From Geotalea uraniireducens Rf4 (GTDB lineage: Bacteria; Desulfobacterota; Desulfuromonadia; Geobacterales; Geobacteraceae), in the NCBI RefSeq assembly GCF_000016745.1, contig NC_009483.1, positions 3,480,001 through 3,512,000 on the forward strand: a DNA stretch of 32,000 nt. Reading direction: 5' to 3'. A program made the translations under genes and the position numbers. Shown one piece after another: positions 15,379 through 32,000 of the stretch (within the stretch, counting starts at the first letter, position 1; each line of letters opens with the position of its first letter). The notes beneath the pieces are model-generated. The model saw only the letters and a program-made list of their open reading frames with translations, did no database searches and was not told where the DNA came from.

Positions 15379-15776
15379 TCGCCGTCGACACGAACATCCT
15401 GGTGCGCTACGCGGTGAAGGACGACCGTAACCAGGCGGCGCTGGCAACCGATTTCCTCGCCAGGAACCGCTGTTTCGTCCTCAAGACCGTCCTCATCGAG
15501 CTAGCCTGGGTCCTCTCTTCGTCTGCCGGCTACAATCTCCCCCGGGAAAACGTTCATGAACGATTGCTCCACATTCTCGGCCTGCCGGACATTGAAACGG
15601 AAGATGCCGCCCACGTTGCCCAGGCTCTCACTTGGTACGCGGAAGGGATGGACTTCGCCGATGCCCTCCATCTCGCCGGCAGTGTGGAACTGGCAGGTCT
15701 TGCCACCTTTGACCGTAAATTTGTCGCAACTGCGGAAAAGCTCGACGCCGTTCCCTCGGTACTCCTCGTGCGATAA
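15375..15776 (+). CDS. vapC: PIN-domain ribonuclease toxin
   Basis: 133 aa. It begins MIAVDTNILVRY with the conserved first Asp, and further acidic landmarks are present (ELAWVL, DFADALH, TFDRKF). A 4-nt overlap with the upstream antitoxin gene is typical of vapBC. Confidence 0.9.
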   Translation: MIAVDTNILVRYAVKDDRNQAALATDFLARNRCFVLKTVLIELAWVLSSSAGYNLPRENVHERLLHILGLPDIETEDAAHVAQALTWYAEGMDFADALHLAGSVELAGLATFDRKFVATAEKLDAVPSVLLVR

Positions 15777-15827
15777 GCTCTTCCTTTTTCAATCCTTTCG
15801 AACCGAATTATTTTCTCTCACACTCGG
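15709..15827 (+). repeat. Direct repeat copy A: last 68 nt of vapC plus 51 nt downstream
   Basis: Hand alignment with 24277-24395 gives 119 nt with 8 mismatches and no gaps. Confidence 0.9.
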
Positions 15828-16887: not shown

Positions 16888-16929
16888 TTGATTCCTCGCC
16901 AAGTTGGGAGAAACTGCGGTGTTCGTGAC

Positions 16930-17940: not shown

Positions 17941-18216
17941 CAATTAAGTCCTCCCGAACTTGTAAATTGCTCGAATATTTTATAGATGTATAAGAATGCT
18001 ATTTTTTTGATATCATTGTGAAACCAGTTCTTTGGTGATTTTCTCTCGCTTGGCCACTTGTCCCCTAGCGTTTTGAATCTTGATTGCATGTCAAAATTGT
18101 TTTCAATATCAATACTTATTAGTTTGTTCTTCCCTGCCGCCAATGTCCTGGCAGGGAAAGCTTCCGCAAGCAGACGTGATCTGTTGTTACCGGCAAACTG
18201 ACTACCACCAGCTTCC

Positions 18217-18258
18217 GAAACAACCTTAAGGGGTCAACAAACAACCTTAAGGGGTCAA
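18217..18258. repeat. Tandem 2 x 21-nt REP-like unit ([G/C]AAACAACCTTAAGGGGTCAA)
   Basis: 18217-18237 and 18238-18258 differ only at the first base. The second copy overlaps the left inverted repeat of the RayT-like unit. The 13-mer CTTAAGGGGTCAA recurs at 24470-24482. Confidence 0.75.
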
Positions 18259-19290
18259 AGCTCCAAATATCAAATTTTCAGGATCGCTTTCACTTTCTCC
18301 ACCTCTGCACACAACTTTTTATCTTGAACCAACTTCCTCGAAAGTAGACGGCGCGCTTCTGCTATTGCGGTTTCACCTACGCCGAACAGATTGCCGATTT
18401 CACGTAGTTTCTTTCCGCTGTACTTATGGCAGAGATACATTCCCACCTGCCGCGCCTGCTTTTCTTTTTCCCCCACTACTGCCGCTACTGCCTTCAATAT
18501 CTCTTCCGGCTCCGGGTTTGACTTAAATTGCCGGATTCCTGGGACAGCTCTGTCTACACCTTTCTCCGAGAGATGTTCTGATGTCACCATTTCTATAAAT
18601 TCCGCCGTGCCGAGTACTGCTGCGCCAAATGTGTTCTGGAAGGGGCTGTCGTATTCCTTCCCAAGCAAGTCTTCCACAAATGTTCGATACTTCTTCATTG
18701 CTTCTTTTGTCTTTTTGCCGAAATAGTCGAGGATTGTCTCCATCTTCAGCCACGTGGGCGCGGTTCCTTGACCGATGTAGTTGTTGTAGCTGGACCAGCG
18801 GTATTCCTCTGGACGCGTAACCATTCCCGCCCTTACCGGGTTTAAATGTATATATCGTGATAGTTCCATCGCATATTCGTCTAATTCAACCAGTATCGCC
18901 TTGTATCGCCCCTGAAAAAGATGCCCTGACCTTTTCCGCTTGATGTTGAAATATGTCGTGTATGCTCCGTTTATGTGCCGCATGATCTGTGACAGATTGC
19001 CTACCGGCGTTTCCAGGAGCAGATGATAATGATTGCTCATCAGGCAATAGGCATGAACTACTCCCCCGTATCGCTCTGTTGCCGATTCCAGATACTCCAG
19101 AAACTTTTGTCGGTCTCTTTGGCTTTTGAATACGTCCTTTTGCTCGTTACCTCTTGATGTGACATGGTAAAATGCTCCTGGATATTCGATTCGTAGCGGT
19201 CGTGCCATGGCGTTCTCCTTTGACTGATAAGTTATTCCTTTATCATCGCAAAGTTTACCATGCTTTTTGATTTTTGGAGACTTGACCCTT
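18249..19290 (-). mobile_element. RayT-like (REPtron-like) unit 1: Y1 transposase gene bounded by imperfect inverted repeats
   Basis: The left end is AAGGGGTCAAAGCTCCAA (18249-18266) and the right end is TTGGAGACTTGACCCTT (19274-19290). About 15 of 18 positions are complementary. I saw no flanking target-site duplication. Total length is 1042 bp. Confidence 0.6.
18270..19208 (-). CDS. IS200/RayT-like Y1 (HUH) tyrosine transposase fused to a DnaA-C-terminal-like HTH
   Basis: Start taken at ATG 19208 with AAGGAG upstream. It is homologous from residue 1 to 23223-24173 (MARPLRIEYPGAFYHVTSRGNEQKDVF). The HUH motif is NHYHLLLE and the Tyr motif is RYIHLNPVRAG. The C-terminal YLCHKYSGKKLREIGNLFGVGETAIAEARRLL is DnaA-domain-IV-like. 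Confidence 0.85.
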   Translation of the reverse strand: MARPLRIEYPGAFYHVTSRGNEQKDVFKSQRDRQKFLEYLESATERYGGVVHAYCLMSNHYHLLLETPVGNLSQIMRHINGAYTTYFNIKRKRSGHLFQGRYKAILVELDEYAMELSRYIHLNPVRAGMVTRPEEYRWSSYNNYIGQGTAPTWLKMETILDYFGKKTKEAMKKYRTFVEDLLGKEYDSPFQNTFGAAVLGTAEFIEMVTSEHLSEKGVDRAVPGIRQFKSNPEPEEILKAVAAVVGEKEKQARQVGMYLCHKYSGKKLREIGNLFGVGETAIAEARRLLSRKLVQDKKLCAEVEKVKAILKI

Positions 19291-19302
19291 TTATTTTCTT
19301 TT

Positions 19303-19620
19303 ATTCGGGTCGAAACCTTCAGGCAGCGGTATGGAGATCTTGACCTCCTTCCGGACATTGATACCGCCGGTGTCCACATTCACTGCTCCGAGATACTTGC
19401 CTCTTGCCGGCACCGGATGTGGAAGTTCCGCCTCTGTAACCGGCGTAATCCTGATAACGGTAGGCCCGACCAGCGCACCTTCAGGGATTTCGAGGAGCAC
19501 ACCCCCGTCACCTTCCACCTTGCCCCCCTTGGCGGTGACAAGGTAGCTGTCGTCCGAACCCTTGAAGGTGGGGTACGAGATGGTGGTCTGGTTGCCGGAG
19601 TAGTCCAGCAGGACTACTGC
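19303..19620 (-). pseudogene. Relic internal fragment of a third giant-protein gene (ZU5-like segment)
   Basis: Encodes ...LLDYSGNQTTISYPTFKGSDDSYLVTAKGGKVEGDGGVLLEIPEGALVGPTVIRITPVTEAELPHPVPARGKYLGAVNVDTGGINVRKEVKISIPLPEGFDP. This parallels IMDNSGNQTLVSYLTFKSDDGNYLVTAKGGKVEGEGGSILDIPEGAL...LSMPLPDGFDP of the gene at about 30170-30490. Homology stops at both ends and no start or scaffold is present. Confidence 0.8.
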
Positions 19621-19667: not shown

Positions 19668-20633
19668 CTATTGTGGCTTCGTCCCCATTCTTTCCGCTGA
19701 TGCATTTTTATTTGCTAGGTACGCCCTGTATTTATCACCATCGAAATCAAGATTCCTTTCACCCAAGGGGTTTGTCCATACTTCTGCTTTAAAAAATACC
19801 TCGCCATTTTGGTTGACAAATTTGATATCTAGATTTGAGTATATCCCACCACCCCTGCTCTTTATGTAGAGATAGGTTTTAAACATCTGACCATTGGTCA
19901 CCTTAACTTTATAAATATTTTTGTAACCGGTCTCTGGTGGCACATAGAGCATCTGGTCAAGAGCAATAATGCCGCTATCGGCATCAGGTGTTTCCAAGAT
20001 AAAGTTATAGGCATCTTCTGCGGAAATGTACTCTACTCGGGCCTTAAGGTCAGCATGTGCATTATCGCTGTGATACCTCTTAAGATAGTATGGTGCTCCA
20101 TCAACCATATCGACAAGATCAACCTCGTAGTATTTTACATCTTTTTTAAAAACTACAGATATGTCACCAGGGATGACAACCGTTGGGGGTTCTTTCTTGC
20201 GCATGGTGAATACTACAGGATTGTTTCTGTCAATAACTGTGCTGCCATCATTTTCATATTCATCATGACCTTTAGCTCGGTTAATCCTCAAATAGTCATA
20301 ACCAGAGGCAGTTATTTTATTAACCAACAGACCGCTTCCATTGATCGCGGAAACTTCAAAAATGCCTTGATTATCAGTTGACAACACAATTTCCTTTACA
20401 CCGACTGCTTGGATAATTTGGATAGAAACCTGTGCGCTAATTACGGGCAGATTGTTATTATCCAATACCTTTCCGTAGTATAAAATGGGTTTGTCAAGTG
20501 ATTTTAATACATTTGATATTGTAGTTTGTTTATCTATTTTACTTAGATCATCTGCAAAATTACACTTTGTAAAAACAGCCAGTCCTGCAACAAACACAAT
20601 AGTAACAATTAATATTTTATTTTTCACAATCAC
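19668..20633 (-). CDS. Signal/anchor-bearing protein immediately downstream of the orphan hydrolase tip (putative cognate immunity protein)
   Basis: 321 aa. The GTG at 20633 overlaps the AAGGGAG RBS, so GTG at 20627 (5-nt spacing) is an alternative start. The N-terminus is hydrophobic (KILIVTIVFVAGLAVFTKC), followed by a CarboxypepD_reg-like segment (ILYYGKVLDNNNLPVISAQVSIQI...TDNQGIFEVSAINGSGLLV). It is homologous along its whole length to 24505-25461. Confidence 0.8.
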   Translation of the reverse strand: MIVKNKILIVTIVFVAGLAVFTKCNFADDLSKIDKQTTISNVLKSLDKPILYYGKVLDNNNLPVISAQVSIQIIQAVGVKEIVLSTDNQGIFEVSAINGSGLLVNKITASGYDYLRINRAKGHDEYENDGSTVIDRNNPVVFTMRKKEPPTVVIPGDISVVFKKDVKYYEVDLVDMVDGAPYYLKRYHSDNAHADLKARVEYISAEDAYNFILETPDADSGIIALDQMLYVPPETGYKNIYKVKVTNGQMFKTYLYIKSRGGGIYSNLDIKFVNQNGEVFFKAEVWTNPLGERNLDFDGDKYRAYLANKNASAERMGTKPQ

Positions 20634-20640
20634 TCCCTTA

Positions 20641-23196
20641 TTAGTATGATGATGTCAATCTAAAATCTGACATGATTGCTTTCCAATAGCCTTTTTCTTG
20701 TATTATAGTTGATCTGAACTGTCTGCTATGAGAGTAATGCTTCGTATCGTAATCAAATAATACTTTAAGGTCTTTATTATTATCATTATAAAAATTATTG
20801 ATGGCAGAAGAAACTGCACCTATGGCTTTAGCTCGTGATTGTATAATTCTGCTGAATACTTCATATCTATCATCCGGCAGATATAATGGGAGAAGGCCAT
20901 TTAAGTGTATTGAACCAAGTGGAACGTAACTGTATGGAAAGTCAGGACGTGTCAAACTATTGAGTTCCCAAGCTGCATACCCCTCATCTCCTCTGCTCAA
21001 GGCAAAATCTAATCTATTAAAATAGTTAATGTGTTTTGCTTTTTGTGTACTTGAAGATAGGTATGGCTTATCTGAGGAGGTTTCGTTACCAGACATATAA
21101 TATCCAAAGATGTTAGCTGTAATAACAGTACCTGGAATCTTGGCTGCAAGGCTTTTCTCTGTTATCGTATTGTCATAATAATGCGCCGACAAGGCCGCCT
21201 GTGTAGCAATATAGGTATGGACTATTCCTGGCCCCGGCAATTTATTGATGGTTTCTCCTGATACGATACCACCCATACTATGACCGAGTAGCCGTATCTT
21301 GCCCTGATATTTCGTCATATCTCCGCTTAAGAGCAAATTTTTAAATGCTTCTGAGGAATTCCATGCCCTTATCTCACTTTCGTCGAAAGTAAGTGCACCT
21401 TCCAATGTCGGCCAACTAAACAAACCAACTTTTCCGGTATACCCTGACCACCAGAGCCGCTTGAACATAGTCTCGGCCCAACGCTCCTTCTCCACTTCTC
21501 CGTTCGTCATGTTCCAGCCATGAACATAGAAAATGTAGTCATTGTTTTTGGGCTGATAATCTCCCTTTCTGGTTGTGTAGGATGTCAACACTCTCTTGGC
21601 GAGATCATCATAAGCAACCTGATATTTGTCATAAAACCAAGTAATCGGTTTCAGGTCCAATTTTGCTGAATTTTCCTCAATGTCGACCCCATCCGATTTG
21701 AGACTAATAGTCAGATCACCTGTACCTGATGATTTACCTTCGAAAATGAAATGCGACGCCCCTGTACCCATCAGTACGTTAGCAGGTAAATCAGAGACAT
21801 TAACTGAATCAATCGTGACAATTCGTTTGTTATACAACTGTAGCAGGGCTGTCTTGTATTCACTTAGATATTTTGTACCATCTGTCACCGCCTCAAAAAG
21901 ATTTAGTGATGGATTTGTGCCATTAACGTTTTTGAATTGCAGTTGATATGAGAAAACCGGCGGCGGCGTATCGTGTGGCGCAGTAAGAAACTTGATGACA
22001 TTACGTGCATGTTCGTCTATCTGTATGTGAACTTGTGCAAAATCTTCCAAGTCGCGCAACGTATTAATTTGGTCAACTTCAGTGTCATTTGCGTCTGATG
22101 CACTTGAATATATATCATCATCAAAAAGACCAACTTCGGCATTTCTCACGTCTGGCCCGGTATCATGATCATCATTCACCCAGAAAGTATATTTCTTGTC
22201 TTCAGGATCATCGAATCTGATCTTCCCATCCCTATTTCCATCAAAGGCAATCCTGATCAGCTTCTCAAGCGGAATATTTTTGCGCCTCATCAACCTGCCG
22301 TCTTTGCGGTTGCTGAATTCAAAAATCGCCTTGGTCCCGATACTGCCAAAAACTGGCGCGATTGCCATCCCATCCACGGTGGTCAGTGTCAAATCGGCAG
22401 CCGGGAAGTTGGTGGCTATAAAGCGTTTGTTTGTCGGAGACGTTATTGTTTTTTTCAAGTCGGCATAGCAGTGCTCGTCACTTCCTTTGCGGAAAGACAG
22501 CAGATACTGCGTCGGGTGGTCTATACCGGGAAGAGGGTTGACAACAGCACCCTTGCGCGTTTTGATTACCATGCTACCTACCAGGTCGTCATCATTACAG
22601 TTGATATCCGGATCCTCGTACTTTACCTCGACGTAGTAGCGACGGTCATCCTCTCCGCCCTTACTGTATCCTATCTCGGGAACCTGAATATTGCTCTCAT
22701 TGTATACTCTTATGTCGTTGGTGTTAATACCCATTGTGCGCATACCTTTGGTCTGGTCCGCCATGTACAGCCAGCCGTCTTTTTCCGCCATGGCCGGGAT
22801 GGTGCCTATGGGAATCATCGCCGGGGATCCTTCCGGTGTTGTAGCGCCGGATGAGTTGGGCAGTTGGGTGATGGTGTTGATCAGCCGGGGATTTTTTGGG
22901 TCTTTCACATCCACTACCTGAATGGCGCTCAAGGTACTGACGATTGCCAGCCCCGTCTCTTTGTTCAAGGTTATATCGTAGGGATAGGAGACAACCTCTT
23001 TATCCAGGGCATCTTTGACCGTTGCCAGCGGTTGGGGGTTGTAGGGGTCGGTAAGGTCAACGGTCTTGAGTCGGCCGCCACCGCCGGTGAGGGCCAGGTC
23101 CATGCTCTGCGGGTTGCCGTCGGCATCGGCATAGCTGTAGTCGGACACACCCGCCACACGCAAGGCGTTCAGCTTTTTGGGCTCGATCACTCCCAT
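20641..23196 (-). CDS. 5'-truncated orphan copy of the 3' third of the giant gene at 25465-32000, ending in a diverged DUF900-like alpha/beta-hydrolase; possibly silent
   Basis: Homology to the full-length gene begins exactly at 23199 (QMGVIEPKKLNALRVAG...). The first in-frame ATG is at 23196, with no visible RBS. The 21 extra N-terminal residues in the ORF track (TTG 23259) are read from inside the transposase unit and overlap the transposase stop. Confidence 0.7.
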   Translation of the reverse strand: MGVIEPKKLNALRVAGVSDYSYADADGNPQSMDLALTGGGGRLKTVDLTDPYNPQPLATVKDALDKEVVSYPYDITLNKETGLAIVSTLSAIQVVDVKDPKNPRLINTITQLPNSSGATTPEGSPAMIPIGTIPAMAEKDGWLYMADQTKGMRTMGINTNDIRVYNESNIQVPEIGYSKGGEDDRRYYVEVKYEDPDINCNDDDLVGSMVIKTRKGAVVNPLPGIDHPTQYLLSFRKGSDEHCYADLKKTITSPTNKRFIATNFPAADLTLTTVDGMAIAPVFGSIGTKAIFEFSNRKDGRLMRRKNIPLEKLIRIAFDGNRDGKIRFDDPEDKKYTFWVNDDHDTGPDVRNAEVGLFDDDIYSSASDANDTEVDQINTLRDLEDFAQVHIQIDEHARNVIKFLTAPHDTPPPVFSYQLQFKNVNGTNPSLNLFEAVTDGTKYLSEYKTALLQLYNKRIVTIDSVNVSDLPANVLMGTGASHFIFEGKSSGTGDLTISLKSDGVDIEENSAKLDLKPITWFYDKYQVAYDDLAKRVLTSYTTRKGDYQPKNNDYIFYVHGWNMTNGEVEKERWAETMFKRLWWSGYTGKVGLFSWPTLEGALTFDESEIRAWNSSEAFKNLLLSGDMTKYQGKIRLLGHSMGGIVSGETINKLPGPGIVHTYIATQAALSAHYYDNTITEKSLAAKIPGTVITANIFGYYMSGNETSSDKPYLSSSTQKAKHINYFNRLDFALSRGDEGYAAWELNSLTRPDFPYSYVPLGSIHLNGLLPLYLPDDRYEVFSRIIQSRAKAIGAVSSAINNFYNDNNKDLKVLFDYDTKHYSHSRQFRSTIIQEKGYWKAIMSDFRLTSSY
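20644..21545 (-). other. Alpha/beta-hydrolase (DUF900-like) tip, orphan allele
   Basis: Landmarks are YVHGWNM, FSWPTLEG, FDESEIRAWNSSEA, GHSMGG (21268-21285), INYFNRLDFAL and KHYSHSRQFRS. Confidence 0.6.
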
Positions 23197-23199
23197 CTG
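22390..23199 (-). repeat. 810-bp block identical to 27361-28170 (recombination handle, orphan copy)
   Basis: Line-by-line comparison at a constant offset of 4971 nt found no mismatch. Identity ends abruptly at 23199/23200. On the other side it decays to roughly 80-85% over 22170-22389 and drops lower beyond that. Confidence 0.9.
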
Positions 23200-23210
23200 A
23201 GAAAAACTAG

Positions 23211-24252
23211 AGGGGTCAGGTCTCAACTTCTGACATACCCTAAATTTGCCTCTACCCAATCTACCATCTTCTTCACTTGTTGATCTTTCTCGGCCTTTAA
23301 TGCCAGCCTCCGGCTTGCCTGCGATACCGCCGCATCGCTTATTCCAAAACGTTCACCTATTTCCTTAAGCTTTGCTCCGCTATACTTCTGACAGCAATAA
23401 ATGCTCATATTTCTTATCAACTCGTCTCTTTCGCCGAGCACCGCATTGATTTCCTTTATGATTTCATCCATCGAAGGCCGGGTTGCCAGTTCCTTCACAG
23501 CCGGAACGCTCCGCTCTGCCCGTCTCTCTCCCAGATGCCTTTCCGATATTTCTCTTACAAATTCTTCACTTCCTAATACTGTCGAGGCTACCGTTGCTTT
23601 CAATGGGCTGTCGTATTCACTATCGAGAAGGTCTTCGACAAATTTCCGATACTTGTTTTTCACATCCGGTGCTTTCGTGCCAAAATAGCCGAGTATGAAT
23701 TCCGTCTTCAGCCAATCGGTCGCCTTGTTGTCTTGACCTATGTAACTTCGATAGCTGGACCACTGATATCCCTCCGGCTTAGCAACTATTCCCGCCCGTA
23801 CCGGATTCAGATGAATGTACCGTGAAAGCTCTGTCGCATATTCATCTGCTTCGACGAGTATCGCCTTGTATCGCCCCTGGAACAGATGACCGGCTCTCTT
23901 CCGCTTGACGTTGAAGTACGTTGTATATGCACCGTTTACATGCCGCATGATCTGCGAAAGGTTCCCGGATGGTGTTTCCAGCAGCAGGTGGTAATGGTTG
24001 CCCATCAGGCAGTAGGCATGGATTAACGCCCCGTACCGCTTTGTTGCCGATTCCAGATATTCCAGAAACTTTTCCCGATCCTTTTGACTCTTGAATACGT
24101 CCTTCTGTTCGTTTCCTCTCGACGTGACATGGTAAAATGCTCCAGGATATTCGATTCTTAAAGGCCGTGCCATCGCTTCCTCCTTTGATTGTTTTGGACT
24201 TTCTCAAACATATCAAAGAAGTTCTACCTGTCAAGAATTGAGACCTGACCCC
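23211..24252 (-). mobile_element. RayT-like (REPtron-like) unit 2: Y1 transposase gene bounded by perfect 16-bp inverted repeats
   Basis: AGGGGTCAGGTCTCAA (23211-23226) is the exact reverse complement of TTGAGACCTGACCCCT (24237-24252). Length is 1042 bp. I saw no target-site duplication. The left repeat overlaps the transposase stop codon. Confidence 0.7.
23223..24173 (-). CDS. IS200/RayT-like Y1 (HUH) tyrosine transposase fused to a DnaA-C-terminal-like HTH
   Basis: 316 aa, with ATG 24173 preceded by AAGGAGG. The HUH motif is NHYHLLLE and the Tyr motif is RYIHLNPVRAG. The C-terminal YCCQKYSGAKLKEIGERFGISDAAVSQASRRL is HTH-like. By eye it is roughly three-quarters identical to 18270-19208. 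Confidence 0.88.
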   Translation of the reverse strand: MARPLRIEYPGAFYHVTSRGNEQKDVFKSQKDREKFLEYLESATKRYGALIHAYCLMGNHYHLLLETPSGNLSQIMRHVNGAYTTYFNVKRKRAGHLFQGRYKAILVEADEYATELSRYIHLNPVRAGIVAKPEGYQWSSYRSYIGQDNKATDWLKTEFILGYFGTKAPDVKNKYRKFVEDLLDSEYDSPLKATVASTVLGSEEFVREISERHLGERRAERSVPAVKELATRPSMDEIIKEINAVLGERDELIRNMSIYCCQKYSGAKLKEIGERFGISDAAVSQASRRLALKAEKDQQVKKMVDWVEANLGYVRS

Positions 24253-24276
24253 TTTGGTTGCCCTCCTTTGGTTGCC

Positions 24277-24344
24277 CTTGACCGTAAATTTGCCGCAACC
24301 GCGGAAAAGCTCGACGCCGTTCCCTCGGTAATCCTCGTGCAATA
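24277..24344 (+). pseudogene. vapC 3'-terminal remnant (last ~22 codons only)
   Basis: Encodes ..DRKFAATAEKLDAVPSVILVQ*, compared with ..DRKFVATAEKLDAVPSVLLVR* for the intact vapC. No upstream PIN coding sequence is present. Confidence 0.85.
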
Positions 24345-24395
24345 AGCTCTTCCTTTTTCAATCCTTTCGAACTAAATCATTTTCTCTCGCACTCG
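24277..24395 (+). repeat. Direct repeat copy B of the vapC 3' end plus downstream sequence
   Basis: 111 of 119 nt are identical to 15709-15827, in the same orientation. The two copies bracket 8449 bp (15828-24276). Confidence 0.9.
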
Positions 24396-24456
24396 GCTGA
24401 GCGGATCGAGCTGGAAGTTAAACCGTTCAGAAATGCACTTAGAATGTGAATTCACC

Positions 24457-24494
24457 GCTTAAGAGAAAGCTTAAGGGGTCAAAGAAAGCTTAAG
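24457..24494. repeat. REP-like cluster: three GCTTAAG cores, AGAAAGCTTAAG x2, containing CTTAAGGGGTCAA
   Basis: GCTTAAG occurs at 24457, 24469 and 24488. AGAAAGCTTAAG occurs at 24464-24475 and 24483-24494 (period 19). The 13-mer CTTAAGGGGTCAA (24470-24482) is identical to the two copies at 18225-18237 and 18246-18258. Confidence 0.6.
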
Positions 24495-24504
24495 TGTACC
24501 TCTA

Positions 24505-25461
24505 CTATTTCTTTATCGTTGAAAATGTTTCAGTTTCCGCGTTCTTTTTATCCAAATACTGGCCATATAATTCTCCATCATAATCAACATTCCTTTCGCC
24601 GTTCGGATTCGTCCAACCTTTGACGACCATGACAGCTTTTTCTTTCGTTGCCTTAAAAGTAGTATCCAGCCTTGAATAAATCTGACCAGCACGACCTTTA
24701 ATGTATAAATACTTCTTCACCTTGGTATTTATTGGGACTGTGATTTGGAAAGTTTTCTGATATCCGCTTGCAGGTGGCACGTACAACATCTCGTCAAGAG
24801 CAATAATGCCGCTGTTTGCATCCTGTTCTTCAACAGTGATGGTATACGAAGAATCCGCTTCGGAATAAACTGCCTTGGCCCTCAGATCGATATGTAAGTT
24901 TTTGCTTTCGTAATTTTCTAAATACCCTTTCTCTCTTCCATCAAGTTTTACAAGATCAATTTCGTAATAAGGAATATTTTTTGTGAATACAATTGAAAAT
25001 TCTTCATTTAATACCAATGTTGGCGGTTCCTTTTTGCGAACGGTGTAAGTTACGGGGCTATCTTTCTTTGCCACGAATGAGCCGTCATTTTCAAAAGATG
25101 TTTCAGCTGTATCTACTGATTTATCATATTCATAACCTCGATTTTTAATATCAACTATCAAAATAGAGTTACCTTTAATGTTGCTGACTTCGAATCTTCC
25201 ACCGCTATCTGTCTTAATACCAAATTCCGCTATGCCATTAGAACTTCTCACATGGACAATCACATCAATGCCTTCAACAGGCGTGTTGAGATGATCAACC
25301 ACCCTACCATAGAAAAGAATGGGCTTGTCCATGGAGAGCAGTTCAAGATCTGCTCTATTGGCTTTATCTGCTTCGGTTAAATTCTGCGCGTGATTGCACT
25401 TTGAAGTAACAACCAAGACGCCTATTGTTAACAACACTACGAGAGGAATCAGTTTATTCAT
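24505..25461 (-). CDS. Signal/anchor-bearing protein immediately downstream of the full-length hydrolase tip (putative cognate immunity protein)
   Basis: 318 aa. The ATG at 25461 lies 3 nt after the upstream stop, and its AAGGAG RBS sits inside the last codons of the upstream gene. The N-terminus is MNKLIPLVVLLTIGVLVVTSKC, followed by a CarboxypepD_reg-like segment (ILFYGRVVDHLNTPVEGIDVIVHV...TDSGGRFEVSNIKGNSILIV). Confidence 0.85.
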   Translation of the reverse strand: MNKLIPLVVLLTIGVLVVTSKCNHAQNLTEADKANRADLELLSMDKPILFYGRVVDHLNTPVEGIDVIVHVRSSNGIAEFGIKTDSGGRFEVSNIKGNSILIVDIKNRGYEYDKSVDTAETSFENDGSFVAKKDSPVTYTVRKKEPPTLVLNEEFSIVFTKNIPYYEIDLVKLDGREKGYLENYESKNLHIDLRAKAVYSEADSSYTITVEEQDANSGIIALDEMLYVPPASGYQKTFQITVPINTKVKKYLYIKGRAGQIYSRLDTTFKATKEKAVMVVKGWTNPNGERNVDYDGELYGQYLDKKNAETETFSTIKK

Positions 25462-25464
25462 TTG

Positions 25465-28400
25465 CTACTCCTTTTCTATTGAGCTTTTTAGTTCAAAATC
25501 ACTAAAGATTGCTTTCCAGTATCCCTGCTCGTCAACAATATTTGAACGAAACTCCTTACTGTGAGAATAATGTTTGTCGTCATAACCAAACTTTTTAAGG
25601 TTTCGGCTCTTTTCAAATCCCTTAAGTGGCGTTTTGCTCGTCGCCCCCAATGCCTTGACCCGAGACTGAATTATTCTGCTGAATATCTCATAACGGTCAG
25701 CGGGAAATTTAAGCAGACTTGGCATGCTTAATCCGTCGTTCGAAATCCCCAATCTCACATAATAGTTGCTTCCGCCATCGATTGAATTCAGCAACGAGCT
25801 TATTATGCCTGGAATTGTCGGAAGCGGATCAAGCAACGTAAAACAAGCTACTGCTAGTCCGTTGCAATACAGGTAACCAGGATCGGGTCTGAACTTGGTA
25901 TTGAATTCCCACGCCATGAAACCACGTTCTCCGGCTGTCAAAGCATAGTCCACTTCGTTAAAATAATTGATGAACTTTGCCTTGCCGGTTGAATCTGCCA
26001 AATAGGTGGCATCTTGTGAGCCACTATTGCCTGAGTAGTAGTACCCAAATACATTCGGAGTTACCGGCAACAGAGGCAGACGCCGGCTACTCTCCGTCAC
26101 ACTATTGTCGTAGAAATGTGACGAAAGCGCTGCCTGTGTGGGAATGTACGTTTTAACGATGCCGGGACCCGACAGCTTCTGAATGGCCTCACCTGAAACT
26201 ATTCCTCCCATGCTATGCCCAAGCAACCTGATGTTTCCAGCATAATCCCTGAGCTTTATTTCAAGTACATCTTTTAGTGCTTCAGAAGAATTCCATGCCC
26301 TCAATTCGCTTCTGTCAAAGGTAGTACCTCTTGGAATGTCATAAGGTTTTTCAAGGGTAGGCCAACTGAACGATCCTACACGCCCTGTATACCCCTGCCA
26401 CCAAAGCCGTTTATAGATTGTTTCGGCCCACCGATCTTTCTCGATTTCACCTTGCATGTTCCAGCCGTGAACGAACAGGAGGTAATCTTTGTCTTTCGCT
26501 GGATATTCGCTTTTTTTGATCTCGCTGACCTGCGATCCGACTGTTTTGCTTCCCTCGTCATATGTGACCCTGAATTTGTCATAGAATGTCTGAATTGGCT
26601 TTAACTCCAGAAGCGCTGAATTTTCTTCTAAAGTATCGCCATCCGCCTTGAGGATAAAGGTGAGTTCTCCTTTGCCAAAGTTTCGCCCTTCAAAAATATA
26701 CGGCGACGTTTTATCCGTCGATATATAGGAGGGGGCGAGTTCTGATTCAGTAGATGAGATAGTAAGAAGCTTTGGTTTATCCAACTGCTTTCGTGCAGAA
26801 TTTTCATTCCACAAATATTTTTCAGTTTCACCAACAGCCTGGAAAATATTTATCTCAGGGGATGTACCGTTGGTATTATTGAACTTGAGATAATAACCGA
26901 AGCTCTTAGGTTGTGTCGTCTGATTTGATAATATCTCCATTACCTTCCTTGCGTGAGGATGAAGTTGCATTTGGACACGGGCAAAATCTTCAAGATCTCT
27001 CAGCGTTTTTATCTTGTCACCGTTTTCACGAACACAATCCTTAACTGTTCCGCTAATATTATCATCTTCTACTGGATAAGTAATTTTTGAGCCTTGGTTG
27101 ATGTCAGTATATTCGGTTTCATAACCATTGACATCATTATCATCATTCACCCAGAAGGTGTATTTCCTGTCCTCGGGGTTTTTAAAATCAATCACCCCAT
27201 CCCTATTTCCATCAAAGGCAATCCTGATCAGCTTCTCAAGCGGTATACTCTTGCGCCTCATGAGTCTCCCCTCTTTGCGACTGCTGAACTCGAATATCGC
27301 CTTTGTACCGATACTGCCGAAGACTGGCGCTATCGTCATCCCGTCTGGTGTGGTCAATTTCAAATCGGCAGCCGGGAAGTTGGTGGCTATAAAGCGTTTG
27401 TTTGTCGGAGACGTTATTGTTTTTTTCAAGTCGGCATAGCAGTGCTCGTCACTTCCTTTGCGGAAAGACAGCAGATACTGCGTCGGGTGGTCTATACCGG
27501 GAAGAGGGTTGACAACAGCACCCTTGCGCGTTTTGATTACCATGCTACCTACCAGGTCGTCATCATTACAGTTGATATCCGGATCCTCGTACTTTACCTC
27601 GACGTAGTAGCGACGGTCATCCTCTCCGCCCTTACTGTATCCTATCTCGGGAACCTGAATATTGCTCTCATTGTATACTCTTATGTCGTTGGTGTTAATA
27701 CCCATTGTGCGCATACCTTTGGTCTGGTCCGCCATGTACAGCCAGCCGTCTTTTTCCGCCATGGCCGGGATGGTGCCTATGGGAATCATCGCCGGGGATC
27801 CTTCCGGTGTTGTAGCGCCGGATGAGTTGGGCAGTTGGGTGATGGTGTTGATCAGCCGGGGATTTTTTGGGTCTTTCACATCCACTACCTGAATGGCGCT
27901 CAAGGTACTGACGATTGCCAGCCCCGTCTCTTTGTTCAAGGTTATATCGTAGGGATAGGAGACAACCTCTTTATCCAGGGCATCTTTGACCGTTGCCAGC
28001 GGTTGGGGGTTGTAGGGGTCGGTAAGGTCAACGGTCTTGAGTCGGCCGCCACCGCCGGTGAGGGCCAGGTCCATGCTCTGCGGGTTGCCGTCGGCATCGG
28101 CATAGCTGTAGTCGGACACACCCGCCACACGCAAGGCGTTCAGCTTTTTGGGCTCGATCACTCCCATCTGGACCGGCGTGGGGTTGTTGATATCCAGGGT
28201 TATCAGATAACCAGCGGTGGTGGTGAGGAGAGCCTTACCCGTTCCGTAGACCGCAATGTCGTTGGGCGAACCGTATCCCTGGCCGATACTGTCGAAGACA
28301 CCCACAATACTTGGGTTGTCTGCCGAGAAGCCGTCATAGCTGTCCTTGGCCTTACTGATGCTGACCACCTGCAGCGCCGCCGCAGCCGTGGCAATGTAGG

Positions 28401-31400
28401 CATATTCGCCGGCAAGGGCCAATCGGCCGGGTATCCCGGAATAGGCTTCGGCCAGCCGCTGTTTACCGATGATGGCCGGGTTTACCGGGTCGGTTTTGAT
28501 GTCGTAGAAGCGGATATAACCGTACTGGTTGCCGTCGCCGAAGACGATGTTCTCGGTCATGGCCATTATCCCGGCCGTTGGTGCGGGATGGACGGCGACT
28601 CCGCGGTAGCTCCAGCTGACGGCGGGGGCGCTCATGCTTTTACTGTAGACCACGGAGGGGTTGGTCGGATCGCTGACGTCGGCGACATGCCACCCCTGGT
28701 CGTCGGCGGCGATGTAGGCGTAGCTGTTGCCGTCATAGTGGTTGTACAGGGCGATGTCGCGCCCCCCCTTGAACTGTTCGGCTTCGGCCAGGTCATAGGC
28801 GGCGGGGCGTTTGGTGGTGAAAGTGCTCTGGTATCCCTGGGCCAGGGGCAAGAAGGCATTGTCGGCCGAGGGGTTGGGGTTGATGTCTACGATGCCTCCG
28901 GCGGGCAGTACCAGCACCTGTACCTGGTACTGCCGGTCGTAGGAGAGGTTGCCCCGTGGTGTGAGCACGGCCTGCATCCGGCCTCCTTCATATGAGGTGG
29001 TGATGATGGCCGGCATCGCCCGTCCGTTGCTGGTATCGATCAGTTTGAAGGTGGCCGGGGTGACGTTTTCCACCGGTTCGCTGAACCAGGCGGTGATCTG
29101 GGTGGTGACTGGGAGGTCCTTGGCGCCATCGGCTGGGGCGATGCTGTCCACGGTGGGGGCGCCGTCAACGCCGCCAGGTATGGCGCCGACCGCCACGACC
29201 CGCAGTTGGAGGGTCTTGGTGCTCTTGTTGGTGCTGGTGTCGGTGGCTTCGACCGTGAAGCGGTAGTTGCCGGCCAGGCCCGGCTTGCAGTTCGTGTCCT
29301 GGCTCCCCTGCAGTTCGGCGGGAAAGACCGCTTTGAAGGTATAGCGCCAGATGGCCGGCTTGTCGGCGGTGGGTGGGGATGAAAGTACCGCGCCCAGCCG
29401 GATAAGGGGTGCGGAGTATGACTGCCAGGTGGTCGCCTCCGGGCTCTTGTATTCCACCGTCAGAGTGGGGTTGACACTCGATTGGTCGCTGATGAACAGC
29501 GGCAGCTGCACTTCCGTCCCCAGCGGCATGGTGCCGGAGCTGATCCGGTTGGTCGGGGCTTGTCCGGGTGCCACCTGCATCGTCAGGTCGATGACCGGCG
29601 CGGTTTTGTCCGGCGGGATGGAGTTTTTGTCCGCCAGCATGAAGTTCAGGTTGGTGATCAGGTCGTGATCGACATCCATGAAGAGGGTGTGGCTTGTGCG
29701 GCGCATTGTCAGGGGGTGGATGGCGGTTATCCGGTAATCCAGCTGCATTGCCACGACGTAGGCATACAGGGTAGCGAACCCGGCATAAAAACCGCTGCTG
29801 TTTGAGTAGCTGACATAATCCCAGGCATCCGGGGTCCGGATGACGGCCCCCTTGATGGGACGGTCGTATTTGTAGACCGGGTTGCCGGAGGCATCGAAGG
29901 TTGGTATCTCGATAACTCCATACGGTGGCGGCTGATAGCCGGTCTGGTCGTTCATCTTCTGGTAGGTATAGCCGGAGACGATGCCTTTTTTCATTCCGCC
30001 GAAGGAGATGAAGGCAAAGGAGCCGATCTGGACGATGCCGGTGAATGGGGGGCTGGCGGTGGTGATACGGTTGTTGATTACCTTGGTGCTGTCGATGATT
30101 TCGTAGACCTTTTCTATGGTGCCGTCGGCGTTATAGATCTCGCTCGGGCGGTTGACAAAGACAGGGGTTGTGGGATCGAAGCCGTCCGGCAGCGGCATGG
30201 AGAGATGGACCTCCTTCTGGAAGTCGATCCCGCCGGTGTCGATATTGAATGCGGAGAGATACGTGCCCGGTGCCGGTACCGGACTTGCCAGGCTGGCTTC
30301 CGGCACAAAGGTCAGTTTGACAATCGTCGGCCCCGACAAAGCGCCTTCGGGGATATCGAGGATGCTCCCCCCCTCTCCTTCGACCTTGCCACCCTTGGCG
30401 GTGACCAGGTAGTTGCCGTCATCGCTTTTGAAGGTGAGGTACGAGACGAGCGTTTGATTCCCAGAGTTATCCATGATGACGATCTTTATCTCGTCGCCCA
30501 GTTGGCCTCTGACCTTGCCGGTAAAGGAGCCGTTGCCGGCCGGAACCACGGAAACTATCTCGCCGCTGGTGTCGTTGATGATGAGCACCGTACAGTCGGC
30601 AGGGGAGCTCCCTTGGGTGGCGGTGATGCTGATGAACCCATCAGCATCGGGAAAGCTCGCGGTGATGCTCCCTGCCGGCGGCATGGGAGGCGGAGTGGTG
30701 TTGCGGATGGTAAAGCCGGAGGTGACATCCTGGCCAAGGGGATATCCCTGGAGATCCTTGATCGTCCCGGCTATGGTGATGGTGTAACTCTGCTGCGACT
30801 TGAGCAGATCTGCCGGGGTGAAGGTGACGACCTTGCCGTCAACGCTGAAGGTGAATACACCGGGGACAGCCGTTCCGGCTGAGTCGAGGAGTTTGAGAGT
30901 TTGGGAGTTTATGGAGCTTTGATCCATGCTTTTGGAGAAGGTAATCACCACCGGCACGTTTGGCTGAATATTGATGCCCGTCGGCGACACTGAAACAACC
31001 GTCGGCAAGATCATCAGGATTTTGAGGTCAATGATTATTGCCTGGTTGGCCGCTATTGCGCCGGTAGCGCTCCCTTCGTCGTTCTTGTATAGATCCGTTG
31101 CAGTCGCGGTGACTGCGGCAACAGGCGCTGCCACAAGATATTTCCCGGTGGCTGCGGAAAGATCGATGAGCGAACCGTTGTCCGTCTTCACCAAAGCACC
31201 GTTGAAGGGGGCGTTGCTGGAATCGGTGACCGTGCCGGTGGCAAAGCCGATCTGCCCCTTGGCCTGGAGGAAGTAATAAACTCCGGAGGAGTTTATTGAG
31301 TTTGATGAGTTCAATGAGTTCTGGAGTTGGGAAGTTAACGGCTCTGTGGTGATGAAGGAGCCGTTCTGTCTGGCCAGGGCCACGAGCTTCAGCTTCTGAA

Positions 31401-32000
31401 CCCCCTTGACATCGATCTGCTTCGCCACGAGCAGCGGTAGAGACGGATTGAATCCGTCTGGCGCCGGGATGGAAATGGTCGCCGATTGCGCCAGGGTCTG
31501 CCGCGTCAGGTTCACCTCCACCACCTTGAGCAGAGTGAAATCGTTCCCCACGGCTCCGGTTGCGGCTGCCCCGTTTTTCGTCGCCACCGGTGTTGTCCGG
31601 GCGAGCGCCCCCTGCGGGATAACGAGAATGTTGCCGTCGGCATCCACCAGCCGGCCGCCATCGGCGCCCACCATGATGCCGCTGTCGGTTGCATCGGGTT
31701 TTACTATCTCTATGCCCACTTTTCCCAGTAAAAGATCGACCAGTGTGAAATCCCTGGACGGCGAAACGGGGAAGGTGGTGCGGAGTTCGACTCCGCTCAC
31801 TCCCCCACCGACTCCGCTCACTGCAGGCTGGGTTAATGCGCCGGCGGCAATGTTGGTTATGCATGGCTGGCGATAGAGAACGATATCCTGGGTGTAGGCG
31901 GAAGGCTCCACCTTGTCTCCAGATTTGAGATCGAATTTTTCCGTTACCCTGTTGTTGATAATGAAACCGGAAATGAATTGCGGCGCTGGGGTAACCCCGT
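25465..32000 (-). CDS. Giant multidomain protein (>2177 aa, 5' end beyond the window) with a C-terminal DUF900-like alpha/beta-hydrolase; candidate polymorphic toxin
   Basis: The frame stays open from 31911 to the window edge (...GVTPAPQFISGFIINNRVTEKFDLKSGDKVEPSAYTQ...), so the GTG at 31911 is not the start. From N to C it has a ZU5-like segment, an SbsA-type Ig domain (PTVVSVSPTGINIQPNVPVVITFSKSMDQSSI), a second ZU5-like segment and a second SbsA-type Ig domain. Next come LVIVD-like propeller repeats, an Asp-rich segment (FDGNRDGVIDF...WVNDDND) and the hydrolase tip. The stop is TAG at 25465-25467. Confidence 0.9.
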   Translation of the reverse strand, partial: GVTPAPQFISGFIINNRVTEKFDLKSGDKVEPSAYTQDIVLYRQPCITNIAAGALTQPAVSGVGGGVSGVELRTTFPVSPSRDFTLVDLLLGKVGIEIVKPDATDSGIMVGADGGRLVDADGNILVIPQGALARTTPVATKNGAAATGAVGNDFTLLKVVEVNLTRQTLAQSATISIPAPDGFNPSLPLLVAKQIDVKGVQKLKLVALARQNGSFITTEPLTSQLQNSLNSSNSINSSGVYYFLQAKGQIGFATGTVTDSSNAPFNGALVKTDNGSLIDLSAATGKYLVAAPVAAVTATATDLYKNDEGSATGAIAANQAIIIDLKILMILPTVVSVSPTGINIQPNVPVVITFSKSMDQSSINSQTLKLLDSAGTAVPGVFTFSVDGKVVTFTPADLLKSQQSYTITIAGTIKDLQGYPLGQDVTSGFTIRNTTPPPMPPAGSITASFPDADGFISITATQGSSPADCTVLIINDTSGEIVSVVPAGNGSFTGKVRGQLGDEIKIVIMDNSGNQTLVSYLTFKSDDGNYLVTAKGGKVEGEGGSILDIPEGALSGPTIVKLTFVPEASLASPVPAPGTYLSAFNIDTGGIDFQKEVHLSMPLPDGFDPTTPVFVNRPSEIYNADGTIEKVYEIIDSTKVINNRITTASPPFTGIVQIGSFAFISFGGMKKGIVSGYTYQKMNDQTGYQPPPYGVIEIPTFDASGNPVYKYDRPIKGAVIRTPDAWDYVSYSNSSGFYAGFATLYAYVVAMQLDYRITAIHPLTMRRTSHTLFMDVDHDLITNLNFMLADKNSIPPDKTAPVIDLTMQVAPGQAPTNRISSGTMPLGTEVQLPLFISDQSSVNPTLTVEYKSPEATTWQSYSAPLIRLGAVLSSPPTADKPAIWRYTFKAVFPAELQGSQDTNCKPGLAGNYRFTVEATDTSTNKSTKTLQLRVVAVGAIPGGVDGAPTVDSIAPADGAKDLPVTTQITAWFSEPVENVTPATFKLIDTSNGRAMPAIITTSYEGGRMQAVLTPRGNLSYDRQYQVQVLVLPAGGIVDINPNPSADNAFLPLAQGYQSTFTTKRPAAYDLAEAEQFKGGRDIALYNHYDGNSYAYIAADDQGWHVADVSDPTNPSVVYSKSMSAPAVSWSYRGVAVHPAPTAGIMAMTENIVFGDGNQYGYIRFYDIKTDPVNPAIIGKQRLAEAYSGIPGRLALAGEYAYIATAAAALQVVSISKAKDSYDGFSADNPSIVGVFDSIGQGYGSPNDIAVYGTGKALLTTTAGYLITLDINNPTPVQMGVIEPKKLNALRVAGVSDYSYADADGNPQSMDLALTGGGGRLKTVDLTDPYNPQPLATVKDALDKEVVSYPYDITLNKETGLAIVSTLSAIQVVDVKDPKNPRLINTITQLPNSSGATTPEGSPAMIPIGTIPAMAEKDGWLYMADQTKGMRTMGINTNDIRVYNESNIQVPEIGYSKGGEDDRRYYVEVKYEDPDINCNDDDLVGSMVIKTRKGAVVNPLPGIDHPTQYLLSFRKGSDEHCYADLKKTITSPTNKRFIATNFPAADLKLTTPDGMTIAPVFGSIGTKAIFEFSSRKEGRLMRRKSIPLEKLIRIAFDGNRDGVIDFKNPEDRKYTFWVNDDNDVNGYETEYTDINQGSKITYPVEDDNISGTVKDCVRENGDKIKTLRDLEDFARVQMQLHPHARKVMEILSNQTTQPKSFGYYLKFNNTNGTSPEINIFQAVGETEKYLWNENSARKQLDKPKLLTISSTESELAPSYISTDKTSPYIFEGRNFGKGELTFILKADGDTLEENSALLELKPIQTFYDKFRVTYDEGSKTVGSQVSEIKKSEYPAKDKDYLLFVHGWNMQGEIEKDRWAETIYKRLWWQGYTGRVGSFSWPTLEKPYDIPRGTTFDRSELRAWNSSEALKDVLEIKLRDYAGNIRLLGHSMGGIVSGEAIQKLSGPGIVKTYIPTQAALSSHFYDNSVTESSRRLPLLPVTPNVFGYYYSGNSGSQDATYLADSTGKAKFINYFNEVDYALTAGERGFMAWEFNTKFRPDPGYLYCNGLAVACFTLLDPLPTIPGIISSLLNSIDGGSNYYVRLGISNDGLSMPSLLKFPADRYEIFSRIIQSRVKALGATSKTPLKGFEKSRNLKKFGYDDKHYSHSKEFRSNIVDEQGYWKAIFSDFELKSSIEKE
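25468..26490 (-). other. Alpha/beta-hydrolase (DUF900-like) tip, expressed allele
   Basis: Landmarks are FVHGWNM (about 26455-26480), FSWPTLEK, FDRSELRAWNSSEA, GHSMGG (26203-26220), INYFNEVDYAL (Asp codon at 25948-25950) and KHYSHSKEFRS (25555-25581). Confidence 0.6.
27361..28170 (-). repeat. 810-bp block identical to 22390-23199 (recombination handle, full-length copy)
   Basis: See the 22390-23199 entry. It covers the last LVIVD-like blades and the following segment of the protein. Confidence 0.9.
27690..28800 (-). other. LVIVD-repeat-like beta-propeller segment
   Basis: Recurrent blades end in hydrophobic-x-[VI]-x-D-[VIL]-[ST/K]-D-P-x-N-P. Examples are GWHVADVSDPTNPSVV, IRFYDIKTDPVNPAII, LKTVDLTDPYNPQPLATV and IQVVDVKDPKNPRLINTI. 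Confidence 0.55.
30020..30410 (-). other. ZU5-like segment 2
   Basis: AKGGKVEGEGGSILDIPEGALSGPTIVKLTFVP...GTYLSAFNIDTGGIDFQKEVHLSMPLPDGFDP follows the ZU5 landmark order: GG-x-L...L-x-IP-x-GA...T-x-I, then an S-x-h-h-x-h-x-P-x-G-x-x-F-x-x-P-V-x-L-x-h-P type second half. Confidence 0.4.
31330..31690 (-). other. ZU5-like segment 1
   Basis: GADGGRLVDADGNILVIPQGALARTTPVAT...LLKVVEVNLTRQTLAQSATISIPAPDGFNPSLPLLVAK shows the same landmark order as 30020-30410. Confidence 0.35.

Follow-up and report, generated by a model that had tools for sequence, protein, structure and literature searches.

A candidate Sec-dependent polymorphic toxin/immunity locus with undescribed components in Geotalea uraniireducens Rf4

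Polymorphic toxins have been studied mainly in Proteobacteria and Firmicutes, for type V, type VI and type VII secretion. Zhang et al. (2012) also described polymorphic toxins with a signal peptide only, for which beta-propeller repeats, RHS and ZU5 are listed (PMC3482391). In the same catalogue DUF2235 is equated with Tox-ABhydrolase-1, and the immunity partners of Tox-ABhydrolase-2 and -3 are the cytoplasmic Imm-SUKH, Imm66 and Imm69. The hydrolase family DUF900 is without assigned function in a recent review (PMC11878206). According to a 2026 preprint (bioRxiv 10.64898/2026.06.10.730825), a secreted alpha/beta-hydrolase of archaeal origin, the homologues of which belong mostly to DUF900, acts as a bactericidal phospholipase A. 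Here, we analysed a 32,000-nucleotide stretch of the Geotalea uraniireducens Rf4 genome (NC_009483.1, positions 3,480,001 to 3,512,000; "the window"). It holds the gene of a very large protein ("the carrier") whose C-terminal module ("the tip") ends in a hydrolase and is followed directly by the gene of a membrane-anchored partner. We estimate a probability of roughly 60% that this locus is a Sec-dependent, i.e. signal-peptide-only, polymorphic toxin/immunity system with undescribed components.

All genes of interest lie on the minus strand, and positions refer to the whole window. The carrier gene runs from 32000 down to 25465; its open reading frame (ORF, 25465-31998) has no upstream stop and stays open to the window edge, so the gene is truncated, as an initial inspection without database searches (the sequence-only reading) had stated. 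Comparison with P0062 suggests that at least 370 amino acids are missing upstream. Most of the gene encodes a scaffold (27214-32000) composed of two ZU5-like stretches, Big_5 immunoglobulin (Ig) domains, a beta-propeller of the LVIVD/choice-of-anchor-B type and an Ig-like linker. The SbsA-Ig and LVIVD parts of this make-up, both proposed earlier, agree with Pfam matches to Big_5 (110.8 bits, cutoff 23.6) and LVIVD (21.5 bits, cutoff 20.2). For ZU5, the third part, the score of 12.9 bits (E = 0.14) is below the cutoff of 21, and with this score the label remains unconfirmed. The scaffold is followed by the tip, which comprises a beta-rich pre-toxin domain similar to the PAD-N/M Ig region (26509-27243, starting with IAFDGNRDG, of which DGNRDG begins at 27213) and a DUF900-like alpha/beta-hydrolase (25465-26508, stop codon included) assigned by PF05990 and by its fold model. 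Partner 1 (24505-25461, 318 amino acids), the first member of the partner family (PAR), has its ATG 3 nucleotides past the carrier stop. A 5'-truncated copy of the carrier's last ~850 codons, the orphan module with a diverged tip 2, is found at 20641-23199; 7 nucleotides after its stop starts the cognate partner 2 (19668-20633, 321 amino acids). NCBI annotates the orphan as an 851-residue LVIVD repeat-containing protein/alpha/beta hydrolase (P0001), and it has no export signal. Two further members of the partner family, gene 3 (16930-17943, 337 amino acids) and gene 4 (15883-16902, 339 amino acids, 70% identical to gene 3), are tipless.

The landmarks FVHGWNM, FSWPT and GHSMGG, on which the initial suspicion of a hydrolase was based, are all present in the carrier tip. 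Its placement in the DUF900 branch is marginal. PF05990 scores 24.2 bits for tip 1 against a cutoff of 20.5, 18.5 bits, i.e. under the cutoff, for tip 2, and 20-46 bits in homologues, most of those scanned being above the cutoff. On these scores the tips appear to be related to DUF900 but only marginally, at the edge of the family. A search with the last 593 residues of the carrier returned 51 protein clusters, nearly all of which cover 97-99% of the query; for this reason the conserved unit is taken to be the whole 590-residue tip and not the hydrolase alone. In an alignment of 32 tip sequences, numbered along this ~590-residue unit, H259-G260 (oxyanion hole), S344 (GHSMG) and D432 are invariant, and H558 and H561 (HYSHS) are kept in at least 90%. 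The corresponding sites of tip 1 are at 26464-26469 (oxyanion HG), 26212-26214 (Ser of GHSMGG), 25948-25950 (Asp) and 25561-25563 or 25570-25572 (His of HYSHS), and the orphan tip retains the full triad just as the carrier tip does. The AlphaFold2 model computed from the alignment (pLDDT 86, pTM 0.89) divides the tip into a beta-rich module (residues 1-245, high pLDDT) and an alpha/beta-hydrolase whose nearest solved structures in Foldseek are monoacylglycerol lipases and esterases (E ~1e-4). Thus, the hydrolase proposed earlier is well modelled, and the tip is predicted to be an alpha/beta-hydrolase-fold serine hydrolase with a conserved Ser-Asp-His triad. With the whole tip model as query, multi-domain alignments dominate and no specific lipase family stands out. 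For the moment the bactericidal archaeal hydrolase would serve as a precedent for these tips, not as a test.

The N-terminal part of the tip carries three conserved motifs in the 32-sequence alignment, namely the IAxDGNRDG junction and the acidic FWVNDDxD (FWVNDDND in tip 1) and RDLEDF. D11 is invariant and D15 nearly so. The best specific Foldseek match of the beta-rich module is the N-terminal/middle Ig region of PAD3 (7dan_A, probability 1.00, 240 columns). A sequence search of the PDB with the tip gave weak matches only, PAD2 at E ~0.1, which agrees with the structural match, and LPLA2 at E 0.57. The pre-toxin domain is described as a putative calcium-loop, PAD-like Ig module. Neither the tip nor the partners match any NCBIfam family. 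The pre-toxin module and the partner family lie outside the catalogue of PMC3482391 and match no Tox, Ntox or Imm family of Pfam, and for pre-toxin module, junction motif and partner family alike no description was found in the literature. The sequence-only reading had called the carrier scaffold undescribed. This holds in part only, as signal-peptide-only polymorphic toxins with propellers and ZU5 already feature in that catalogue.

Partner 1, the candidate immunity protein of tip 1, has a 100% match in a Geotalea uraniireducens protein. Partners 1 and 2 are homologous (42.5% identity, E 8e-87; 45% had been estimated by eye), and partner 2 matches a hidden Markov model (HMM) of the family with E 1.6e-62. 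The AlphaFold2 model of partner 1 (pLDDT 75) consists of a helix (residues 4-43), in line with the N-terminal anchor proposed earlier, a CarboxypepD_reg/CnaB-like beta-sandwich, for which Pfam gives a weak CarboxypepD_reg match, and a second beta domain. The latter carries the conserved C-terminal motif NPxGxRNxDxD across the family. A basic-then-hydrophobic N-terminus was found in 71 of 73 partners, usually without a cleavage-type motif, which agrees with a signal anchor and a periplasmic body. The family HMM was built from these 73 partners with window genes 3 and 4 excluded; it matches gene 3 over residues 36-323 with E 1.7e-22 and gene 4 with E 5.7e-21. Hence the window holds four partner genes for two tips. 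Among 1.84 billion representative proteins the partner profile found 2549 at E ≤1e-10, most of them 320-390 residues long (~2500 representatives, each a cluster at 50% identity). Tandem double partner units of ~690-730 residues occur in P0081, P0110 and P0118 and are reminiscent of fused poly-immunity proteins known from other polymorphic toxin systems.

With the tip alignment as query, species-representative genomes yielded at least 165 relatives and 80 loci, mostly from Verrucomicrobiota, Lentisphaerota and Kiritimatiellia, with some from Acidobacteriota (Holophagales, Geothrix) and deltaproteobacteria; the Geotalea locus itself is not one of the 80. The tip occupies the extreme C-terminus of host proteins of ~560 to more than 3459 residues in all loci but L081, the weakest one, where ~350 residues follow the tip and the partner is absent. 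N-terminal to the tip the carriers are mutually unrelated, with Glucodextran_B/Big_13, TSP3, Big_7/BACON/NIDO or Big_9/cadherin-like architectures, and a Sec-type N-terminus is present in 30 of the 41 carriers that are complete. Of 78 cases that could be evaluated, 76 show a partner gene at most 150 nucleotides downstream in the same orientation. Apart from tip and partner, the neighbourhood contains no gene family conserved across the 80 loci. For 63 cognate pairs the mean identity is 33% between tips and 24% between partners; the partner is the more divergent member in 98% of comparisons, and the divergences correlate with r = 0.70. The co-variation of tip and partner that a toxin/immunity locus had led one to expect is therefore present. 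More than one tip ORF was found in 14 of the 80 loci and more than one partner in 15. The short tip ORFs, which start within the tip unit or just ahead of it, are devoid of a signal peptide. Orphan cassettes and extra partner genes near the main gene thus are a property of the window as well as of these 14-15 loci.

Some particularly long arrays are noted separately. In L028 (1-11785) a single full-length tip gene precedes five ORFs of the partner family and three truncated ones of the tip. Rows of four partners are present in L107/L108, and rows of three in L010 and in L031. These arrays should be good material for a study of cassette turnover.

An enzyme with a private chaperone would likewise be expected to show tight operonic coupling and co-variation. 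Accordingly, the pair could be a secreted or surface esterase for nutrient acquisition or matrix remodelling together with a membrane-anchored accessory factor (a steric chaperone, an activator, or a helper in secretion or anchoring), as known from lipase/Lif operons, in which case the extra copies would be paralogues and decaying duplicates. The size and topology of the partner are indeed like those of Lif foldases, which have an N-terminal anchor and a periplasmic body, its invariant motifs would suit such a role, and the scaffolds resemble adhesins or carbohydrate-binding stalks. The lack of a nearby delivery system fits as well. However, Lif foldases are alpha-helical, whereas the partner model is all-beta past the anchor helix and Lipase_chap (PF03280) gave no match in the partner at E ≤0.01. 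A private factor would also not be expected to evolve faster than its enzyme, to occur in surplus without one (two genes in the window, and 15 of 80 loci), or to be retained next to truncated tips that have lost the export signal and still keep ORF and triad. We consider this esterase/accessory-factor pairing unlikely; the architecture of the second copy and of the carrier scaffold, described in the following, provides two further arguments against it.

The orphan module has in common with the carrier an 811-bp perfect direct repeat (22389-23199 = 27360-28170, offset 4971 bp, zero mismatches). Beyond it follows a 227-bp zone of ~81% identity, and then nucleotide identity falls to ~50-60%. On the protein level tip 1 and tip 2 break exactly after IAFDGNRDG (DGNRDG begins at 22242 and GHSMGG at 21285 in tip 2) and are ~54% identical from there on, with gaps of ~38 residues in total located between the catalytic Asp and His. 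The visual estimates of 60% identity and a ~40-residue indel were close to these values. Main gene and orphan of locus L072 show 100% identity over the 58 residues up to VDIAVDANRDGVI and diverge beyond, at the same junction as in the window. A conserved body with abrupt tip divergence is thus found in two lineages, L118 adds an allele pair of 82%/83%, and further main/orphan homology blocks occur in L028, L008 and L079. Divergence that sets in at the junction, after perfect upstream homology, is difficult to reconcile with paralogous esterases and their accessory factors. We infer that the 811-bp repeat could act as substrate for homologous recombination that swaps tip 1/partner 1 for tip 2/partner 2.

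Base composition follows the same modular pattern. GC content is 0.57-0.62 in the carrier scaffold versus 0.33-0.48 in tips and partners, with 0.34-0.39 in partner genes 3 and 4 (0.35-0.38 in gene 3), and the drop starts near nucleotide 27700. Two RAYT-like Y1 transposase genes separate the modules and are located at rearrangement breakpoints. Transposase 1 (23223-24173) scores 54.9 bits for Y1_Tnp and 85.1 bits for the NCBIfam model REP_Tyr_transpos NF047646 (cutoff 80), from which it is classified by sequence as RAYT-like; it carries a C-terminal helix-turn-helix of the DnaA_C type, and its stop codon lies right next to the 5' break of the orphan. Transposase 2 (18270-19208, with M58 as the likely start of a 369-residue ORF reaching 19379) is 63% identical to transposase 1 in amino acids and matches Y1_Tnp (51.3 bits) and Bac_DnaA_C (29.7 bits). 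Between partner 2 and transposase 2, ~300 bp (19307-19607) remain of a paralogous carrier gene; they derive from its ZU5-like region and are 72% identical in nucleotides to 30173-30473 and 63% identical in amino acids to carrier residues 504-609. A pair of 122-bp direct repeats, A (24275-24396) and B (15706-15827), 92.6% identical, brackets an 8.4-kb block from transposase 1 to partner gene 4. The 3' end of vapC falls within repeat B, and repeat A, which contains this 3' end and the DNA downstream of vapC, is therefore read as a displaced copy of the vapC junction. The arrangement suggests insertion or duplication of the whole 8.4-kb block in one piece. Partner genes 3 and 4, both RAYT-like genes, the carrier fragment at 19307-19607 and the drop in GC content go beyond the sequence-only reading. 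Searches for tandem repeats found none in the window, and a scan for promoters and terminators gave nothing above shuffled sequence.

Several observations on these elements stand on their own. Y1/RAYT-like genes with a DnaA_C-type helix-turn-helix are found directly downstream of an immunity-type gene in the window (18270-19379 and 23223-24173), and Y1/RAYT-like genes also follow the partner in three unrelated loci (L066:12969-13751, L076:13384-14301 and L077:2704-3102) and Imm21 in an Rhs locus (a Y1 transposase gene, L117:19533-20297). The 13-mer TTGACCCCTTAAG occurs four times in the window (0.74 expected), in pairs at 18225-18258 and 24451-24482, just downstream of transposase 2 and of partner 1, respectively, and its complement, AAGGGGTC-like, is located upstream of both RAYT-like genes. 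These 13-mers are possibly REP-like sites for the RAYT-like transposases. A carrier fragment similar to the remnant, 78% identical to 30377-30507, is found in an unrelated sample (L118:2231-2361) downstream of an 83%-identical partner; where partner and carrier fragment occur together, they may indicate a breakpoint that recurs.

RAYT-like genes exactly at breakpoints, a carrier fragment and direct repeats around the 8.4-kb block would all be expected if the second copy and the extra partners were functionless, transposase-associated debris, with the first carrier/partner pair as the sole working unit and the polymorphic appearance incidental. Such decay would hardly have left the orphan with an 850-codon frame, a triad and an intact partner despite ~45% amino acid divergence. 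The two tipless partners are also intact, 70% identical to each other as they are, and the orphan architecture recurs across unrelated phyla. We regard debris as a highly unlikely explanation.

A different line of evidence comes from the carrier itself. Locus L117 was reached through a protein that shares 50% identity with the N-terminal part of the window carrier. The L117 scaffold is colinear with the window carrier at 36-50% amino acid identity over carrier residues 8-1434. The homology ends at the same point at which GC content starts to drop in the window, and the scaffold of L117 runs into DUF6531, RHS repeats, an RHS core (PF03527) and a C-terminal domain of ~225 residues. Downstream of this carrier are Imm21 (69.8 bits) and two Y1 transposase genes. 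Because L117 is colinear yet RHS-tipped, the scaffold family can bear either an Rhs/Imm21 cassette or a PAD-like/hydrolase/partner cassette; one carrier type is thus seen with unrelated putative toxin domains, on one example. In our view no other single observation argues as strongly for the tip being a toxin module as this exchange does, although it is seen at one locus. Such an exchange would be unexpected for the scaffold of a nutrient-acquiring esterase. Together, the orphan tips, the surplus partners, the L072 junction and the Rhs/Imm21 alternative of L117 lend support to the polymorphic toxin/immunity organisation suspected earlier, as far as sequence comparison can inform on this point.

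The L117 scaffold is relevant also for a narrower proposal, according to which hydrolase and partner form a self-protection pair only. The hydrolase would then be directed against non-bacterial targets (protists, fungi, or the membranes of a host or prey) or act as a general lytic exoenzyme, the partner would shield the membranes of the producer while the enzyme crosses the periplasm, and discrimination of kin or strains would play no role. The Sec route crosses the periplasm, where the anchored partner resides, and a contact-dependent delivery apparatus is absent. There are also secreted phospholipases of the DUF900 type, bactericidal or lytic, that have no immunity gene, and PhlB is said to shield the Serratia producer from phospholipase PhlA. 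Yet self-protection needs neither allelic tip/partner diversification nor spare cassettes nor orphan partners, which are hallmarks of intraspecific conflict, and the same scaffold family bears an Rhs/Imm21 cassette as well. This proposal appears quite unlikely.

Several results weigh against the assignment as a polymorphic toxin/immunity system and limit its probability. First, the N-terminus of the carrier is outside the window, and consequently its export route is extrapolated from homologues; in none of the 80 loci is delivery machinery encoded nearby. Second, the enzymatic assignment is broad. The DUF900 matches span only profile positions 16-116 of 232 and are marginal, the structural neighbours of the tip are generic esterases at E ~1e-4 and thus point to no particular substrate, and within the tip/partner family the tips belong to one enzyme family and not to many toxin folds. 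Third, Foldseek comparison of the partner yielded generic Ig, CnaB or prealbumin-like folds only and no known immunity protein, and invariant polar motifs such as NPxGxRNxDxD are unusual for immunity proteins. Fourth, partner-like genes occur without tips. A partner-seeded metagenome scan gave 35 loci, ~27 of them with sufficient upstream DNA; a tip is directly upstream in 19, and ~8 have a distant partner-like gene (22-29% identity) and no tip. Tipless partner-like genes follow a TPR protein in three loci and MscS or MOSC genes in others, and one lone, closer partner relative (39% identity) has an integrase, a helicase of the SNF2 type and BREX-like genes as neighbours. These genes leave room for other roles of the partner family.

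In the three TPR cases (L094, L099:4066-6753 and L109:1178-3890) the partner-like gene, 22-26% identical, follows a protein of ~540 residues with TPR repeats, and a separate subfamily with a different associate is possible on the basis of these sequences. The lone relative (P0057, about 9788-10834 in L120) is shared by L120-L122, where the neighbouring genes encode a phage-type integrase, an SNF2/DUF3670 helicase and BrxC/PglY-like proteins. Solo immunity genes are common among toxin systems, and judged by its surroundings this gene looks like an orphan immunity-type gene in a mobile defence island.

If the locus is a polymorphic toxin/immunity system, the following mode of action can be proposed. 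A very large exported Ig/beta-propeller protein would display or release its modular 590-residue C-terminal tip via Sec, and the esterase of the tip would most likely attack ester bonds in the envelope lipids of competitors. The partner is envisaged as bitopic in the inner membrane, with two beta-sandwich domains on the periplasmic side; held by its anchor, it would most likely bind the cognate tip in the periplasm of the producer and neutralise it there. The spare truncated tip/partner 2 and partner genes 3 and 4 would form a reservoir of toxin types and of extra immunity, with the tipless partners protecting against non-self tips. RecA-type recombination across the 811-bp repeat would delete 4971 bp, comprising tip 1, partner 1 and a transposase, and fuse the carrier to tip 2. 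The low-GC cassettes were presumably acquired horizontally, with RAYT-like transposases marking the breakpoints of rearrangement.

Whether these findings extend to a new and widespread class of interbacterial weapon, defined by a Sec-exported lipase/esterase toxin, a PAD-like, calcium-binding pre-toxin Ig domain with its DxNRDG loop as recombination junction and a beta-sandwich immunity family anchored in the inner membrane, and with Ig/propeller scaffolds as general carriers including those of Rhs, appears evenly balanced to us. If so, it would serve Verrucomicrobiota, Lentisphaerota, Acidobacteriota and relatives of Geobacter as a main means of competition, and would provide a testable antagonism system for little-studied but abundant soil and freshwater phyla, Kiritimatiellia included, as well as for the metal-reducing Geobacter group. 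An edge branch of DUF900 would receive its first biological role, and a large candidate immunity family and a pre-toxin/junction module would be added to the known repertoire. The proposal also raises the question by which route a Sec-exported hydrolase on an adhesin-like stalk reaches the membranes of a neighbour. The 811-bp perfect repeat in turn leads to a checkable prediction, i.e. the switching of toxin type by deletion.

Two other units are noted in the window. A vapBC-type toxin-antitoxin pair on the plus strand (15127-15378, MazE/AbrB-type antitoxin, 30.1 bits; 15375-15776, PIN-domain toxin, 47.6 bits) sits between partner gene 4 and an unrelated gene and is convergent with the partner array. 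The unrelated gene (740-15025, minus strand) encodes a Sec-signal protein of 4761 residues with five Big_5, six CarboxypepD_reg and two Laminin_G_3 domains, the C-terminal half of which consists of four long near-identical glycine-rich units (SKIDVSGKGYLGGWQG...). It has only Ig-type domains in common with the carrier; tip and partner are absent from it.

Comparison with described systems started from those whose defining features can be searched for. The contact-dependent growth inhibition (CDI) system was rejected, as the two-partner secretion (TPS) domain, FHA repeats, VENN and CdiB gave no Pfam match in the carrier or in 13 complete homologues and the junction is DxNRDG. An Rhs toxin was rejected for the window gene because YD/RHS repeats and the RHS core are absent from the window carrier in Pfam. 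Both results are in keeping with the earlier remark that none of the known carrier hallmarks is visible, and RHS, PAAR, VgrG, TPS and LXG were likewise not found in the homologous carriers scanned. The Tle/Tli pairs of type VI secretion (T6SS) were rejected since no VgrG, PAAR or Hcp is linked and DUF900 is the sole Pfam match of the tip; VgrG, PAAR, Hcp or a T6SS cluster are neither present in the window, which contains no secretion genes at all, as had been stated, nor conserved across the 80 loci. For the partner, a Lif foldase was rejected on account of the missing Lipase_chap match and the all-beta model. The locus is hence not assigned to CDI, Rhs (as regards the window gene), Tle/Tli or Lif, because the features defining these systems were tested and not found.

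Still, each of them shares part of its design with the locus. Rhs and CdiA-CT systems are alike in the switch from body to variable tip at a fixed motif (DxNRDG here, VENN in CdiA and PxxxxDPxGL in Rhs), the coupled downstream gene (for immunity there, a candidate immunity gene here), 5'-truncated orphan pairs with a homology block, and the lower GC content of the tips. The window gene differs from them in having no YD shell, RHS core, TPS, FHA or CdiB, and its tips are alleles of one enzyme family. T6SS Tle1-5/Tli pairs likewise combine a GxSxG serine hydrolase with an exported, periplasm-facing partner, the genes of which are sometimes multiplied. Lipase_3 and DUF3274 are Pfam families of Tle classes. 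The window tip, in contrast, has Sec-type carriers in its homologues and is related by Pfam to DUF900 and not to DUF2235, Lipase_3 or DUF3274. LipA/Lif and PhlA/PhlB resemble the locus in the order of an enzyme gene and a membrane-anchored (Lif) or inhibitory (PhlB) accessory gene; neither is known to have orphan tips or surplus partners, unlike the window locus. The Haloferax protein cinquedea, a secreted alpha/beta-hydrolase with DUF900-type homologues, kills bacteria by phospholipid hydrolysis (bioRxiv 10.64898/2026.06.10.730825). It is a small single-domain archaeal protein encoded as a single-gene unit without immunity gene, carrier or cassettes, and the DUF900 signature is what it has in common with the tips. 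Compared by description, Tox-ABhydrolase-2 and -3 have cytoplasmic immunity proteins, whereas the partner here is an exported, membrane-anchored beta protein. The organisation also agrees with the Sec-dependent class of PMC3482391, with which the locus shares a long repetitive centre and standalone spare cassettes; judged from homologous carriers it would also share the signal peptide as sole trafficking mark, and the tip and the partner would correspond to the C-terminal toxin domain and the immunity gene directly downstream.

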